In this document: positions 2,688 to 45,675 of the stretch, in pieces
Layout: the number at the start of each line of letters is the position of its first letter
Position numbering within the stretch: position 1 is the stretch's first letter
From: Shigella phage Shfl2
Sequence record: HM035025
DNA: 64,000 nt
Reading direction: 5' to 3' (one strand)
Notes under the pieces: generated by a model
What the model was told of the DNA's origin: nothing
The model's database searches: none
Seen by the model: only the letters and a program-made list of their open reading frames with translations
Position numbers and translations under genes: made by a program

Positions 2688-3112
2688 TGCTTCTGATCCC
2701 TGAAACTCATGAATTAGTTCTCGAGAATGTCGAAGCACTTATTCCTGAAGCACAGGGTCGCTTTGACGAATTGTCTTCTGCTTTAAATAAAGACGATATA
2801 AATACAATTGTCGAGAATATGCTTGATGATGAAACTGATTTAGCAGTTGCATTAGCTTCTATTAATGAAAATATGCCGTTAAATGAATTCATTGTTAAGC
2901 ATGTTTCAGCTCGTGGTGAAATTACACGTACTAAAGACCGCAAAACGCGCGAACGTAATGCATTTCAAACCACTGGGCTGTCTAAAGCAAAACGTAGACA
3001 AATTGCTCGCAAAGCTACCAAAACGAAGATTGCCAATCCAGCAGGTCAATCTCGTGCTCAGCGTAAGCGTAAAAAAGCTCTTAAACGCCGTAAAGCATTA
3101 GGATTAAGCTAA
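2687..3112 (+). CDS. 68: Prohead core protein gp68
   Basis: 141 aa, basic C-terminus, start overlaps gp67 stop; T4 position of gene 68. Confidence 0.8.
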
Positions 3113-3750
3113 TGAATGAACCCCAATTACTAATTGAAACTTGGGGTCAACCTGGCGAAATTATTGATGGCGTGCCAATGCTTGAATCTCATGATGGAAA
3201 AGACCTAGGTTTAAAACCTGGTTTATACATCGAAGGAATATTCATGCAAGCGGAAGTCGTCAATAGAAATAAACGTCTTTATCCAAAACGCATATTAGAA
3301 AAAGCGGTAAAAGACTATATCAATGAGCAAGTTTTAACTAAACAAGCTCTCGGAGAATTAAATCATCCTCCACGCGCTAATGTTGACCCGATGCAAGCCG
3401 CTATCATTATAGAAGATATGTGGTGGAAAGGAAATGACGTATACGGACGAGCTCGTGTTATTGAAGGTGACCATGGTCCTGGAGATAAATTAGCAGCTAA
3501 TATTCGTGCCGGATGGATTCCAGGAGTTTCTTCTCGTGGATTAGGTTCATTGACTGACACAAATAAAGGTTATCGTATCGTAAACGAAGGATTCAAATTA
3601 ACTGTAGGTGTTGATGCAGTATGGGGTCCAAGTGCTCCAGATGCATGGGTAACTCCTAAGGAAATTACCGAATCACAGACGGCGGAAGCCGATACAAGTG
3701 CCGATGACGCCTATATGGCTCTCGCAGAGGCCATGAAAAAAGCGTTATAA
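3112..3750 (+). CDS. 21: Prohead core scaffold protein and protease gp21
   Basis: 212 aa, same length as T4 gp21, position between 68 and 22. Confidence 0.93.
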   Translation: MNEPQLLIETWGQPGEIIDGVPMLESHDGKDLGLKPGLYIEGIFMQAEVVNRNKRLYPKRILEKAVKDYINEQVLTKQALGELNHPPRANVDPMQAAIIIEDMWWKGNDVYGRARVIEGDHGPGDKLAANIRAGWIPGVSSRGLGSLTDTNKGYRIVNEGFKLTVGVDAVWGPSAPDAWVTPKEITESQTAEADTSADDAYMALAEAMKKAL

Positions 3751-3780: not shown

Positions 3781-4590
3781 ATGCTTAAAGAACAACTGAT
3801 TGCTGAAGCGCAAAAAATTGATGCTTCCGTTGCTCTTGATAGTATTTTCGAATCAGTTAATATTTCTCCGGAAGCAAAAGAAACTTTCGGCACTGTATTC
3901 GAAGCTACCGTCAAGCAGCACGCCGTTAAATTAGCTGAATCTCATATCGCTAAAATTGCTGAAAAAGCAGAAGAAGAAGTAGAAAAAAATAAAGAAGAAG
4001 CCGAAGAAAAAGCTGAGAAGAAAATCGCTGAGCAAGCTTCTAAATTCATCGACCATCTTGCGAAAGAATGGCTCGCCGAAAATAAATTAGCAGTTGATAA
4101 AGGCATCAAAGCCGAACTGTTTGAATCCATGCTTGGTGGATTAAAAGAGCTCTTTGTTGAACACAACGTTGTTGTTCCAGAAGAATCAGTTGATGTTGTA
4201 GCTGAAATGGAAGAAGAGCTGCAAGAACATAAAGAAGAATCAGCTCGTCTGTTCGAAGAACTCAATAAGCGTGACGCATATATCAATTATGTGCAGCGTG
4301 AAGTGGCATTGAGCGAAAGTACTAAAGATCTGACTGAGTCTCAAAAAGAAAAAGTCTCTGCTCTGGTCGAAGGTATGGATTATTCAGATGAATTCTCAAG
4401 TAAATTGAGTGCCATCGTAGAAATGGTGAAGAAGTCTAATAAAGATGAAAGCACTATTACTGAGGGTATAAATACTCCTGATACTGAAGCAGCCGGACTG
4501 AATTTCGTCACTGAAGCTGTAGAAGATAAAGCTGCACCTGGTGCAGAAGATATTGTAAGTGTATATGCGAAAGTCGCATCTCGTTTCTAA
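3781..4590 (+). CDS. 22: Prohead core scaffold protein gp22
   Basis: 269 aa, acidic coiled-coil-like composition (EEEVEKNKEEAEEKAEKK), T4 gp22 length and position. Confidence 0.9.
   Translation: MLKEQLIAEAQKIDASVALDSIFESVNISPEAKETFGTVFEATVKQHAVKLAESHIAKIAEKAEEEVEKNKEEAEEKAEKKIAEQASKFIDHLAKEWLAENKLAVDKGIKAELFESMLGGLKELFVEHNVVVPEESVDVVAEMEEELQEHKEESARLFEELNKRDAYINYVQREVALSESTKDLTESQKEKVSALVEGMDYSDEFSSKLSAIVEMVKKSNKDESTITEGINTPDTEAAGLNFVTEAVEDKAAPGAEDIVSVYAKVASRF
4467..4474 (+). promoter_or_regulatory. Late promoter (TATAAATA) inside gene 22, likely serving gene 23
   Basis: Exact TATAAATA within 3' part of gene 22, 134 nt upstream of gene 23 ATG. Confidence 0.55.
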
Positions 4591-4608
4591 TTTTAAAGGT
4601 TAACACAA

Positions 4609-6174
4609 ATGACTATCAAAACTAAAGCTGAACTTTTGAACAAATGGAAGCCATTACTGGAAGGTGAAGGTTTACCGGAAATTGCTAATAGCAAACAAGC
4701 GATTATCGCTAAAATCTTTGAAAACCAGGAAAAAGATTTCCAGACAGCTCCAGAGTACAAAGACGAAAAAATCGCTCAGGCGTTCGGTTCTTTCTTAACA
4801 GAAGCTGAAATCGGTGGTGACCACGGTTACAATGCTACTAACATCGCTGCTGGTCAGACTTCTGGCGCAGTAACTCAGATTGGCCCAGCTGTTATGGGTA
4901 TGGTACGTCGTGCTATTCCTAACCTGATTGCTTTCGATATTTGCGGTGTTCAGCCGATGAACAGCCCGACTGGCCAGGTATTCGCCCTGCGCGCAGTATA
5001 TGGTAAAGACCCAATCGCTTCCGGTGCTAAAGAAGCATTCCACCCAATGTATGGCCCAGATGCAATGTTCTCTGGTCAGGGTGCTGCTAAGAAATTCCCG
5101 GCTCTGGCTGCTAGCACAGAAACCACAGTAGGTGATATCTATACTCACTTCTTCCAGGACACTGGTACTGTGTATCTGCAGGCTTCTGCTCAAGTAACAA
5201 TTAGTGCAAGCGCAACTGATGCAGCTAAATTAGATGCTGAAATTAAGAAACAAATGGAAGCTGGTGCATTGGTAGAAATCGCTGAAGGTATGGCTACTTC
5301 TATCGCTGAACTCCAGGAAGGTTTCAACGGTTCTACCGATAACCCATGGAATGAAATGGGCTTCCGTATCGATAAACAAGTTATCGAAGCTAAATCTCGC
5401 CAGCTGAAAGCTGCTTACTCTATTGAATTAGCACAAGACCTCCGCGCTGTTCACGGTATGGATGCTGATGCCGAACTGTCTGGTATTCTGGCTACCGAAA
5501 TCATGCTGGAAATCAACCGCGAAGTTGTTGATTGGATTAACTACTCGGCTCAGGTTGGTAAATCTGGTATGACCCTGACTCCGGGTTCTAAAGCTGGCGT
5601 ATTTGACTTCCAGGATCCGATTGATATTCGTGGTGCTCGCTGGGCGGGTGAATCCTTTAAAGCTCTGTTGTTCCAGATTGACAAAGAAGCAGTTGAAATT
5701 GCTCGTCAGACCGGTCGCGGTGAAGGTAACTTCATTATCGCTTCCCGTAACGTAGTTAACGTTCTGGCTTCAGTTGATACTGGCATTTCTTATGCTGCAC
5801 AGGGTCTGGCTACCGGCTTTAACACTGATACTACCAAGTCAGTATTTGCTGGTGTTCTGGGTGGTAAATACCGTGTATATATCGACCAGTATGCTAAACA
5901 GGATTATTTCACTGTAGGTTATAAAGGTCCGAACGAAATGGATGCTGGTATTTACTATGCTCCATATGTAGCTCTGACTCCGCTGCGTGGTTCCGATCCG
6001 AAGAACTTCCAACCAGTAATGGGATTCAAAACTCGTTACGGTATCGGTATCAACCCATTTGCAGAATCCGCTGCTCAGGCTCCGGCTTCTCGCATCCAGA
6101 GCGGTATGCCTTCTATTCTGAACAGCCTTGGTAAGAACGCTTACTTCCGCCGTGTATATGTTAAAGGTATCTAA
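4609..6174 (+). CDS. 23: Major capsid protein gp23
   Basis: 521 aa, same length as T4 gp23; strong highly-expressed-gene codon bias (ctg/ggt/cgt rich). Confidence 0.97.
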   Translation: MTIKTKAELLNKWKPLLEGEGLPEIANSKQAIIAKIFENQEKDFQTAPEYKDEKIAQAFGSFLTEAEIGGDHGYNATNIAAGQTSGAVTQIGPAVMGMVRRAIPNLIAFDICGVQPMNSPTGQVFALRAVYGKDPIASGAKEAFHPMYGPDAMFSGQGAAKKFPALAASTETTVGDIYTHFFQDTGTVYLQASAQVTISASATDAAKLDAEIKKQMEAGALVEIAEGMATSIAELQEGFNGSTDNPWNEMGFRIDKQVIEAKSRQLKAAYSIELAQDLRAVHGMDADAELSGILATEIMLEINREVVDWINYSAQVGKSGMTLTPGSKAGVFDFQDPIDIRGARWAGESFKALLFQIDKEAVEIARQTGRGEGNFIIASRNVVNVLASVDTGISYAAQGLATGFNTDTTKSVFAGVLGGKYRVYIDQYAKQDYFTVGYKGPNEMDAGIYYAPYVALTPLRGSDPKNFQPVMGFKTRYGIGINPFAESAAQAPASRIQSGMPSILNSLGKNAYFRRVYVKGI

Positions 6175-6189
6175 TCTTTGACGATTTAA

Positions 6190-6218
6190 GGGACCTTCGG
6201 GTCCCTTTAGTTGTTTTT
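6190..6218 (+). terminator. Rho-independent terminator after gene 23
   Basis: GGGACC-UUCG-GGUCCC hairpin (6190-6205) followed by T-rich tract. Confidence 0.8.
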
Positions 6219-6222
6219 ATGG

Positions 6223-6230
6223 TATAAATA
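6223..6230 (+). promoter_or_regulatory. Late promoter (TATAAATA) for gene 24
   Basis: Exact TATAAATA 27 nt upstream of gene 24 ATG. Confidence 0.65.
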
Positions 6231-6257
6231 AATCATATAAACCAAAAGGAAAGCGCA

Positions 6258-7541
6258 ATGGCTAAAATCAACGAACTTCTGCGCGAATCAACCACAACGA
6301 ATAGCAACTCAATCGGTCGCCCAAATCTCGTTGCTTTGACTCGCGCTACCACTAAATTAATATATTCTGACATTGTAGCAACGCAAAGAACTAATCAACC
6401 TGTTGCTGCTTTTTATGGTATCAAATACCTTAATCCAGATAACGAATTTACATTTAAAACTGGTGCTACTTACGCTGGCGAAGCTGGATACGTAGACCGA
6501 GAACAAATCACAGAATTAACAGAAGAGTCTAAATTAACTCTCAATAAAGGCGATTTATTCAAATATAATAATATCGTTTATAAAGTATTAGAAGATACAC
6601 CATTTGCTGATATTGAAGAAAGCGATTTAGAATTAGCTCTTCAGATTGCAATTGTTCTTTTAAAGGTTCGTTTATTTTCTGATGCTGCAGTAACAAGCAA
6701 ATTTGAAAGCTCTGATAGTGAAATTGCGGATGCTAGATTCCAGATTAATAAATGGCAAACCGCAGTTAAATCTCGTAAACTTAAAACTGGCATTACGGTT
6801 GAATTAGCACAAGATTTAGAAGCAAATGGATTCGATGCTCCTAATTTCTTGGAAGATTTGCTTGCAACTGAAATGGCGGATGAAATCAATAAAGATATTC
6901 TACAGTCTTTGATTACAGTATCAAAACGCTATAAAGTCACAGGAATTACTGATACTGGATTCATTGATTTGAGTTATGCATCTGCACCTGAAGCTGGTCG
7001 TTCATTATACCGAATGGTGTGTGAAATGGTTTCGCATATCCAAAAAGAATCAACTTATACTGCAACGTTCTGTGTTGCTTCAGCTCGTGCCGCTGCGATT
7101 CTTGCTGCATCAGGTTGGTTAAAACATAAACCAGAAGATGACAAATATCTTTCACAAAATGCCTACGGGTTCTTAGCTAATGGTTTACCGCTTTATTGCG
7201 ATACCAACAGCCCATTAGATTATGTAATCGTTGGCGTAGTAGAAAATATCGGTGAAAAAGAAATTGTTGGATCAATTTTCTATGCTCCATATACAGAAGG
7301 TCTTGACTTAGATGACCCTGAACATGTAGGTGCATTTAAAGTTGTAGTTGATCCAGAAAGTTTGCAGCCATCTATCGGTTTATTGGTTAGATATGCTTTA
7401 TCTGCAAATCCTTATACTGTAGCAAAAGATGAAAAAGAAGCAAGAATAATTGATGGTGGAGACATGGATAAAATGGCGGGTCGTTCAGATTTGTCTGTTT
7501 TATTAGGTGTTAAGCTACCAAAAATTATTGTTGATGAATAA
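6258..7541 (+). CDS. 24: Capsid vertex protein gp24
   Basis: 427 aa, gp23 paralog position and length as in T4. Confidence 0.93.
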   Translation: MAKINELLRESTTTNSNSIGRPNLVALTRATTKLIYSDIVATQRTNQPVAAFYGIKYLNPDNEFTFKTGATYAGEAGYVDREQITELTEESKLTLNKGDLFKYNNIVYKVLEDTPFADIEESDLELALQIAIVLLKVRLFSDAAVTSKFESSDSEIADARFQINKWQTAVKSRKLKTGITVELAQDLEANGFDAPNFLEDLLATEMADEINKDILQSLITVSKRYKVTGITDTGFIDLSYASAPEAGRSLYRMVCEMVSHIQKESTYTATFCVASARAAAILAASGWLKHKPEDDKYLSQNAYGFLANGLPLYCDTNSPLDYVIVGVVENIGEKEIVGSIFYAPYTEGLDLDDPEHVGAFKVVVDPESLQPSIGLLVRYALSANPYTVAKDEKEARIIDGGDMDKMAGRSDLSVLLGVKLPKIIVDE

Positions 7542-43332: not shown

Positions 43333-43561
43333 ATTGTTTTTCCGTTAAAACAGTAATATCATAGTAACAATCTGAAGAAGTTTTAACTGTAGAAATTTTA
43401 TTATCAAAATACTCACGAGTCATTTTATGAGTATAATATTTTTTGCCATAAATGATAATAGGCTGTTCTGGTCCTGGAACTTCTAACTCGCTTGGATTAG
43501 GAAGTGTAAAAAGAACGACACCAGAAGTATCCTTAAATCGTAAAATCATATATCCTCTCAA
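43286..43561 (-). CDS. Hypothetical protein
   Basis: 91-aa ORF. Confidence 0.5.
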
Positions 43562-43572
43562 TTAAATTAAAA

Positions 43573-44433
43573 TTACACCGCCATCTTTCCTTTCAATACA
43601 CCGTGGGACTGATAATCTTTGAGAACGAAATCCCGTGCTGTCATATATTCAGTTAACCAATACATTTGAGTTTCAGTATCGCATTGACTGAATCCATTAG
43701 GCCAATTAATACTGAGTTTGCATAGATCCATAGGAGTTCTATTTAATATCTCTTTGCATTGCTCAATATGGTTAGAATAAATGTGTGTATTACCACCCGA
43801 GAATACCAAATCGCCCGGAACTAGTTCACACATGTCAGCAACAATATGCAAAAGAGCAGCATAACTCGCGATGTTAAATGGAAGACCGAGGAAAACATCT
43901 ACCGAACGTTGATACCATTGGAGGTCAAGGTATCCGTTACGCACATTAAACTGATAGAACATATGACAAGGAGGTAATGCCATCTGCTTGAGTTCAACTG
44001 GATTCCATGCCGACACAATTTGACGCCTATCGTTGGGAAATGTTTTAATACGATTAACAACTTCTACAATTTGATCTACACCACCAAAATCACGCCACTG
44101 TTTTCCGTAAATTGGACCAAGTTCACCGCTATGATAACCTAAGTCTTTGGCCTGGTTTTCGTAGTTTTCATCCCAAATTGTTTTTCCTGCAATTAAAGAT
44201 CCATGAGTACGTTGACGTAAATCATTTACGTTAGTACTTCCTGATAAGAACCACAACAACTCAGAAATACATGCATTCCAGGCGAGCTTCTTAGTCGTTA
44301 CTGCAGGAAAACCTTTAGTTAAATCCCAGCGTAATTTAGTACCGAACAAAGCAATTGTTCCTGTGCCTGTTCGGTCATCAGTTTCATAGCCATTTTCAAA
44401 AATGTCTTTAATTAAATCTTGGTATTGTTTCAT
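43573..44433 (-). CDS. td: Thymidylate synthase (intron-less)
   Basis: 286 aa contiguous; active-site Cys context PCHMFYQF. Confidence 0.95.
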   Translation of the reverse strand: MKQYQDLIKDIFENGYETDDRTGTGTIALFGTKLRWDLTKGFPAVTTKKLAWNACISELLWFLSGSTNVNDLRQRTHGSLIAGKTIWDENYENQAKDLGYHSGELGPIYGKQWRDFGGVDQIVEVVNRIKTFPNDRRQIVSAWNPVELKQMALPPCHMFYQFNVRNGYLDLQWYQRSVDVFLGLPFNIASYAALLHIVADMCELVPGDLVFSGGNTHIYSNHIEQCKEILNRTPMDLCKLSINWPNGFSQCDTETQMYWLTEYMTARDFVLKDYQSHGVLKGKMAV

Positions 44434-44477
44434 TTAGTACCTTATATAAATTATAATACATTTTATGAAGCTAATAA

Positions 44478-44837
44478 TCAATACGGTTTAGCATCAAATT
44501 TTCTTTCGATTTCAGGAGTGAAATATAATTCTTTACCACGTTTGGAAAAACGACCAATAATATGATAATTATTCTCATCAAACGTGATATTACCAATATC
44601 CATAGCTTTCAACCAAATATCGATATTTCTATCTAGTTTTATATCAAAATTCCAATACGGAGAACTATTACCAAAAATACTACAAGCGGATTCAGTGAAA
44701 CAACTGCTATAAATCTTGTCTTTAGGAACTACTAATTGATAGACGCCTTTAATAAACTGAGGACCCTGCCATTTTGGTTGTTTCGCGTCTTTTTCTAATA
44801 GAATAGGGTAATAATTAAAATTCATATTTTCCGCCAC
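44478..44837 (-). CDS. Hypothetical protein located between frd and td
   Basis: 119-aa ORF, no motif recognised. Confidence 0.5.
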   Translation of the reverse strand: MAENMNFNYYPILLEKDAKQPKWQGPQFIKGVYQLVVPKDKIYSSCFTESACSIFGNSSPYWNFDIKLDRNIDIWLKAMDIGNITFDENNYHIIGRFSKRGKELYFTPEIERKFDAKPY

Positions 44838-44845
44838 GTGTTATT

Positions 44846-45675
<830 letters not shown>

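Follow-up and report, generated by a model that had tools for sequence, protein, structure and literature searches.

The frd-td interval of Shigella phage Shfl2

The stretch of DNA considered here, referred to below as the window, comprises 64,000 nucleotides of Shigella phage Shfl2 (HM035025). Between its genes for dihydrofolate reductase (frd) and thymidylate synthase (td), the open reading frame list of the window confirms a minus-strand frame at 44478..44837 that opens with GTG and encodes 119 aa. Over positions 43500-45500 the closest record is Escherichia phage PinkRuby (99.1%), and the window is a Tequatrovirus (T-even) segment. The frame corresponds to the gene td.1 of related phages, and the features of the locus are as follows:

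44846..45430, minus strand: frd (dihydrofolate reductase), upstream neighbour of td.1, 194 aa
44837, minus strand: alternative GTG start of td.1, giving 119 aa
44478..44825, minus strand: coding sequence of td.1 (PHROG 1928), giving 115 aa when read from the ATG at 44825
44434..44477, minus strand: td.1-td spacer of 44 nt, from the td.1 stop to the td start
43573..44433, minus strand: td (thymidylate synthase), intron-less, downstream neighbour of td.1, 286 aa

The ATG at 44825 is more likely to be the start of td.1 than the GTG at 44837, because td.1 of phage T6 is annotated from the same ATG, because homologues align from this position, and because phage F2 has no upstream GTG yet keeps the ATG and the GGCGGA that precedes it. 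In addition, no Shine-Dalgarno-like sequence precedes the GTG in the window sequence.

With this start, td.1 lies 20 nt from frd and 44 nt from td. The 44-nt spacer holds, on the minus strand, an AAGG Shine-Dalgarno-like sequence for td and a TATAAT hexamer, together with an AGCTTCA motif resembling the MotA box of T4 middle promoters; a sigma-70-like match at 44481..44453 overlaps it. From these elements we infer a putative promoter for td within the spacer. The spacer is kept in T6, RB32 and TadeuszReichstein; in F2 it measures only 13 nt, and T4 lacks it.

The td gene of the window (43573-44433, minus strand) is continuous over its 286 codons and lacks the group I intron with I-TevI that is present in T4, T6, ACG-C40, fPS-2 and Melville. 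Presence of the intron is uncorrelated with presence of td.1, and a tie between the two was rejected because T6 and Melville carry both.

td.1 as a coding gene and its existing annotation

To judge from sequence conservation, td.1 is a genuine protein-coding gene under selection. Its protein matches phrog_1928 with an E value of 9.5e-36, residues 8-115 aligning with profile positions 2-125 of 126, and a tblastn search found the gene in 587-588 phage records, in one place per record. The window and T6 copies differ at 13 codons synonymously and at none nonsynonymously, and comparison with the more distant F2 copy gave 28 synonymous and 8 nonsynonymous codon differences. The 119-aa minus-strand frame pointed out in the preliminary description of this DNA is thus real, as attested by the frame list, the PHROG 1928 match and the signature of selection, with the shorter 115-aa product being the likelier one.

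The gene is not new. It bears the name td.1 in the GenBank records of T2H and T6 (AY262132 and AY262134; protein ABI48938), and the T2 protein of 115 aa is 100% identical to that of the window. The RB32 orthologue is RB32ORF229c, whose GenBank entry is marked 'flanked by 9 bp repeat'. These copies resemble that of the window in their position between frd and td and in the flanking 9-bp repeat, with no substantive difference, so both td.1 and the repeat are already on record in GenBank annotation, and td.1 is an ordinary accessory gene. A literature search by gene name, GenBank accessions and flanking repeat found no paper discussing td.1 and no experimental data on it.

Distribution in Tequatrovirus and in other genera

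At a threshold of at least 90% protein identity, td.1 is held by 361 records, including T2, T6, RB14, RB27 and RB32. A 41-nt probe across the T4 junction, in which frd and td are fused, matched only 32 records, namely T4 strains together with RB55, RB59, vB_EcoM_112, HY03, SG1, G28, F1, FN, JEP6, FL12, FL18 and G2133, whose junctions are nearly identical to that of T4. Insert sizes were also sampled in 60 of the 513 records that match a 500-bp T4 junction probe, with the span of the match as read-out; among the 58 usable records, about 70% carry the 416-bp segment with td.1, about 20% a 206-bp segment described below, and about 7% the fused junction. The order frd - td.1 - td is the majority arrangement in Tequatrovirus, and T4 is the exception.

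Outside Tequatrovirus, seven genera have a homologue of td.1 immediately downstream of frd:

Kanagawavirus (ZX14)
Mosugukvirus (PM2)
Jiaodavirus (KP17)
Marfavirus (VAC36)
Gelderlandvirus (Melville)
Moonvirus (CF1)
Winklervirus (Kc304)

Among these seven, overlap of the frd stop and td.1 start codons is usual. The distant homologues show 28-46% identity; in the comparison with the neighbouring genes, identity to the window copies is 31-46% for td.1, 43-56% for Frd and 71-79% for Td, so that td.1 appears to have diverged to an extent comparable to Frd. The closest relative outside Tequatrovirus was found in a 32-kb metagenomic contig of a T4-like phage, in which td.1 is 63% and Frd only 48% identical; the order there is frd - td.1 - paralogue - 69-aa ORF - td, with overlaps at all junctions. 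Counting genera and this contig, the site after frd is occupied by td.1 in at least eight lineages.

Within Tequatrovirus, the most divergent copy of td.1 is that of F2 (87-88% nucleotide identity). In this phage a longer frd, of 205 aa, shares 11 nt with td.1 (294-911 and 901-1248 of the F2 stretch), the left copy of the 9-bp repeat is missing, and the compact arrangement resembles that of the other genera.

A tandem paralogue and a variable slot

In six of the seven other genera, and in the metagenomic contig, a paralogue of td.1 with 113-124 aa lies in tandem between td.1 and td. The two proteins share motifs and match each other in blastp with values down to 1.5e-14; the paralogue differs by an insertion of about 20 residues after the QxKW motif. 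No paralogue was found elsewhere in the 64-kb window. The coordinates of the paralogues, each in its own stretch, are:

2817-3176, 2808-3155, 2790-3143, 2809-3156, 2787-3134 and 2814-3188: paralogue ORFs in six genera
4332-4673: paralogue in the metagenomic contig

The interval between frd and td thus varies in content: it may hold td.1, an unrelated 68-aa ORF, both of these plus the paralogue, or nothing. The 68-aa ORF (orf68, PHROG 9550) is encoded by the 206-bp allele, with an ATGA joint to frd and a TAATG joint to td. About 135 records contain it at an identity of at least 90%. In the Tequatrovirus sample about 20% of records have it, and it is also present in Dhakavirus. Examples of the allele, again in the coordinates of each stretch, are:

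850-1056: orf68 allele of ACG-C40
2750-2956: orf68 allele of fPS-2
about 6214-6420, minus strand: orf68 allele of JS98

In JS98 (Dhakavirus) orf68 is unannotated, and its protein is 97% identical. ACG-C40 and JS98 are 97-100% identical over the cassette, together with some 30-50 nt of either flank, and only 60-85% identical further out, a recombination footprint that suggests recent exchange of the cassette between genera. Because of this footprint, exchange of cassettes at the frd-td site is possible. Distant homologues of orf68 (about 42% identity) occur in phAPEC8-like (Phapecoctavirus-type) phages. In RB49 the interval holds unrelated ORFs of 30 and 89 aa, and no remnants of td.1 were found in the frd-td gaps of RB69, JS98 or RB49.

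In VAC36 and in the metagenomic contig, orf68 coexists with td.1 and the paralogue. Since these genes coexist in some phages and alternate in others, the T-even alleles seem to be reduced, each in its own way, from a slot with room for up to three genes.

The T4 junction

In T4 (NC_000866), frd lies at 145109-145690 and td ends at 145112, so that the two genes overlap by 4 bp (ATGA). The preliminary description had stated this overlap correctly: it is 4 bp long and there is no ORF between the genes. An orthologue at this site in T4 and close relatives was what would, by that description, have refuted its reading; close relatives carry the gene, and T4 itself does not. Alignment of the junction with T4 and other T-even phages, as the preliminary description had proposed, shows that T4 is without 416 bp between 9-bp repeats. 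The features concerned are:

44844..44852, minus strand: left (frd-proximal) copy of the 9-bp direct repeat TAAATGAAA, containing the frd stop TGA
44428..44436, minus strand: right (td-proximal) copy of the repeat, containing the td start ATG
44437..44852, minus strand: segment of 416 bp missing from T4, consisting of td.1, its spacer to td and a single copy of the repeat

In a three-way alignment of the window, T4 and T6, exactly 416 bp were missing from T4, and removal of these in silico from the window gave the T4 junction without a single mismatch in the stretch that was compared. The repeat makes the segment equally placeable at 44428-44843. Similarity between the two copies extends to 13 of 15 bases, and they form the only direct repeat of at least 9 bp at a spacing of 416 bp in the 64-kb window, with a chance probability per endpoint of 1.4e-4.

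As to the allele from which the T4 junction could have arisen, a td.1-positive phage with flanks close to those of T4 exists in TadeuszReichstein (96.5%). The frd/td backbone of T4 is only 86-87% identical to the window and 95-96% identical to ACG-C40, which bears orf68, and the orf68 allele could also yield the T4 junction via a 5-bp AATGA repeat. The same ATGA overlap is found in RB69 (Mosigvirus; 6384-6387 of the RB69 stretch), with the same core TATAAATGAAACAATACC and flanks 66-75% identical to T4. Because RB69 shares the fused junction, td.1 would have been lost at least twice, or the fused allele would have spread by recombination.

A second difference between T4 and its relatives lies on the other side of frd. 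An 81-aa ORF at 45430-45675 (minus strand) abuts the start of frd, and tblastn gave no match for it in T4 138-148 kb; the gap between frd.1 and frd in T4 is a 71-nt remnant, the ends of which resemble the start and end of the 81-aa ORF. RB32, C40, TadeuszReichstein, fPS-2 and F2 have this ORF, annotated there as hypothetical. T4 thus seems to have undergone a second deletion of its own beside frd.

Predicted fold and conservation of the Td.1 protein

AlphaFold models were obtained for Td.1 (pLDDT 78, pTM 0.74) and for the paralogue (pLDDT 88, pTM 0.78). The two have in common an N-terminal strand, a beta-meander, a single helix and, at the C-terminus, a long hairpin bearing the sequence GRFxKxG. 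An alignment of 17 sequences of the family, including paralogues, revealed the motifs QxKW, G[IV]Y and GRFxKxG....F, all present in Td.1. Residues Q16, W19, G27, G91, F93, K95 and G97 are invariant, and L9, Y29, R92 and F102 are nearly so; there is no Asp, Glu, His, Cys or Ser among these residues. The pI of Td.1 is 8.5, and aromatic residues make up 17% of the protein.

The preliminary description held that no function can be read from the sequence, and this is borne out: searches of Pfam, NCBIfam and PADLOC gave no match for Td.1 or the paralogue, with Pfam examined for Td.1 up to an E value of 10. The profile and structure searches that it had also proposed were productive only in part, yielding the match to PHROG 1928 and no functional family. 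A sequence-profile search of the PDB returned only a non-significant match to transthyretin/HIUase (E 0.26), which was not used. Foldseek against the PDB with the Td.1 model gave nothing significant, and a search of BFVD returned only uncharacterised proteins of T4-like phages. HMMER against 1.84 billion representatives found only 51 proteins, almost all of 95-148 aa. Four very long matches among repeat proteins (SprB, Ig, CarboxypepD_reg) were set aside as spurious, each being a multi-stretch match summed from weak beta-strand similarities.

The agreement of the two models, together with the lack of an invariant residue typical of catalysis, favours a non-enzymatic, OB-like binding module. 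For the general statement that Td.1 is a small non-enzymatic binding protein, the chances appear about even. Somewhat more tentatively, the models suggest an OB-like beta-barrel with one helix, in which the aromatic and basic GRFxKxG hairpin would be the conserved element. Suitable OB-fold proteins for comparison are RPA14/RPA32, Stn1-Ten1, Teb1, SSB, PriB and S1 domains; neither Pfam (to E 10) nor the PDB profile search gave a sequence-profile match of Td.1 to an OB-fold family. The favoured binding targets would be nucleic acid or a protein partner in the nucleotide-precursor machinery, but the probability given to a specific link of Td.1 to nucleic acid or to the dNTP-synthesis complex is low. 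More doubtful still is the idea that td.1 and its paralogue constitute an unrecognised family of OB-like subunits or regulators acting with the Frd/Td machinery, or of proteins that bind frd-td mRNA or single-stranded DNA; if this were true, sixty years of T4 genetics would have missed the family solely on account of the deletion of td.1 in T4.

Possible function, origin and probable loss of td.1

Evidence from the distribution and from the T4 junction points to a history in which td.1 would have been inherited along with frd and td. The family appears restricted to T4-like phages and to occupy the frd-td gap across the Tevenvirinae, and the ancestral order would have been frd - td.1 - td, as in the window. 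T4 and its closest relatives would then have lost td.1 by a deletion of 416 bp between the two copies of the repeat, through recombination or replication slippage, and this deletion would have fused frd and td to give the ATGA overlap. That td.1 is ancestral and was lost in T4 is the simplest reading because of the synteny across genera. Classical T4 rII deletions are deletions between short direct repeats. In deletions of this kind in T4, one copy of the repeat and the intervening DNA are likewise gone and the junction is exact; unlike T4 deletions such as those in rII, the loss of td.1 is deduced from natural variants rather than directly observed. The identity of the gene and its deletion in this manner seem very likely on the sequence comparisons, and the account as a whole, joining inheritance of td.1, its loss in T4 and a small binding module, is considered likely.

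Td.1 is probably expressed with Frd and Td from a common early transcript, since the start of td.1 overlaps the stop of frd in most other genera. Against this, td.1 of the window is spaced from its neighbours by 20 nt and 44 nt, and promoter-like hexamers lie in the spacer before td.

A different reading of the function is that td.1 is a counter-defence or host-takeover factor whose adjacency to frd and td is incidental. Small, dispensable and variably present early genes are typical of phage accessory and anti-defence genes, and td.1, being small, located in the early region, dispensable and variably present, fits this description; it has tandem paralogues, and the slot is taken in some phages by an unrelated small ORF, which Phapecoctavirus-type phages possess as well. 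However, td.1 matches no known family in Pfam, NCBIfam or PADLOC, and its position after frd is strictly conserved, with overlaps of start and stop codons across genera. The conserved position and the overlaps argue for a functional or regulatory coupling of td.1 to nucleotide metabolism, and a role in counter-defence is regarded as distinctly unlikely. In either case, td.1 can be dispensed with under laboratory conditions, and its presence varies among T-even phages; the preliminary description had called it accessory, which agrees with its absence from T4 and with the varying content of the frd-td gap.

With regard to the history, T4 might have acquired its fused junction by homologous recombination (gene conversion) from a phage already lacking td.1. 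RB69 offers an identical junction core, exchange of the orf68 cassette is documented at the site, and the frd/td region of T-even phages is mosaic, with td 73-94% identical where td.1 is 87-97% identical. The flanks of the T4 junction, though, are identical over about 40 nt on each side to those of T-even phages bearing td.1 and not to those of RB69 (66-75%). Moreover, gene conversion only moves the deletion to another lineage, where it is still required. We consider this route highly unlikely for T4.

The preliminary description had proposed the opposite history, that of an accessory gene inserted into a tightly linked gene pair. In its most specific form this would be a recent insertion of a mobile cassette, with the 9-bp repeat as a target-site duplication and the ATGA overlap of T4 as the ancestral state. 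The exact direct repeats at both edges of the segment are what a target-site duplication would leave, the site is empty in both T4 and RB69, the orf68 cassette has been exchanged between genera (C40/JS98) at the same site, and the note on the 9-bp repeat in the RB32 record may imply the same reading. Yet the repeat is expected with or without an insertion, because it is made of functional sequence contexts, those of the frd stop and the td start. F2 carries td.1 yet no left repeat, and its frd runs into td.1 in the manner of other genera. The same site is occupied in at least eight lineages with a divergence similar to that of Frd, no genome has more than one copy (588 places in 588 records, and no further paralogue in the window), and td.1 has no transposase or endonuclease domain. 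A MITE or transposon was rejected on copy number and on the geometry of inverted repeats, as the sole inverted repeat near the ends has a complementarity of 78% and runs into the direct repeat rather than lying inside it. With about 360 records carrying td.1 against 32 with the fused junction, and with synteny in seven genera, the claim of an insertion is not sustained; a recent one appears very unlikely indeed, and deletion in T4 is preferred.

If td.1 is ancestral and was deleted in T4, the textbook ATGA overlap of frd and td would be a derived feature of the T4 lineage, found also in RB69, rather than the norm among T-even phages. T4 lacks at least two small genes adjacent to frd that are kept by most relatives, which calls for caution in the use of T4 as a reference. 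The result defines td.1 as a conserved family inside a cluster of genes for nucleotide precursors; current understanding of phage biology is unchanged by it.

Almost certainly wrong is the reading of td.1 as a free-standing homing endonuclease, which takes support from a GenBank label in the BASEL phages TadeuszReichstein, FriedrichMiescher, WilhelmHis and KarlGJung and from presence/absence polymorphism amid conserved genes in a region rich in such elements (I-TevI, MobE, SegG), and which is contradicted by the lack of a Pfam match up to E 10, of any invariant acidic residue, His or Cys, and of any nuclease in the structure searches, by a length of 115 aa that is below that of known T4 free-standing GIY-YIG and HNH enzymes, and by a stable synteny across genera with divergence tracking Frd. 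It was rejected for want of a GIY-YIG, HNH, LAGLIDADG or PD-(D/E)XK motif. The genes mobE (between nrdA and nrdB) and segG share with td.1 the presence/absence polymorphism between conserved genes of nucleotide metabolism; unlike them, td.1 has neither a nuclease motif nor a nuclease fold and has long been in place across genera rather than occurring sporadically.

Other product names given to td.1 in some GenBank records, besides 'putative homing endonuclease', are 'putative glucose-1-phosphate adenylyltransferase' and 'reductase'. In VAC36, the 68-aa ORF is named 'flagellar biosynthesis protein' and a 31-aa ORF 'DNA-directed RNA polymerase'. These names, for td.1 and for the VAC36 ORFs alike, look wrong, being without support in profile searches; doubtful names occur among the records MZ501106, MZ501066, MZ501113, MZ501089, MN580668, PP526941 and MZ571829.
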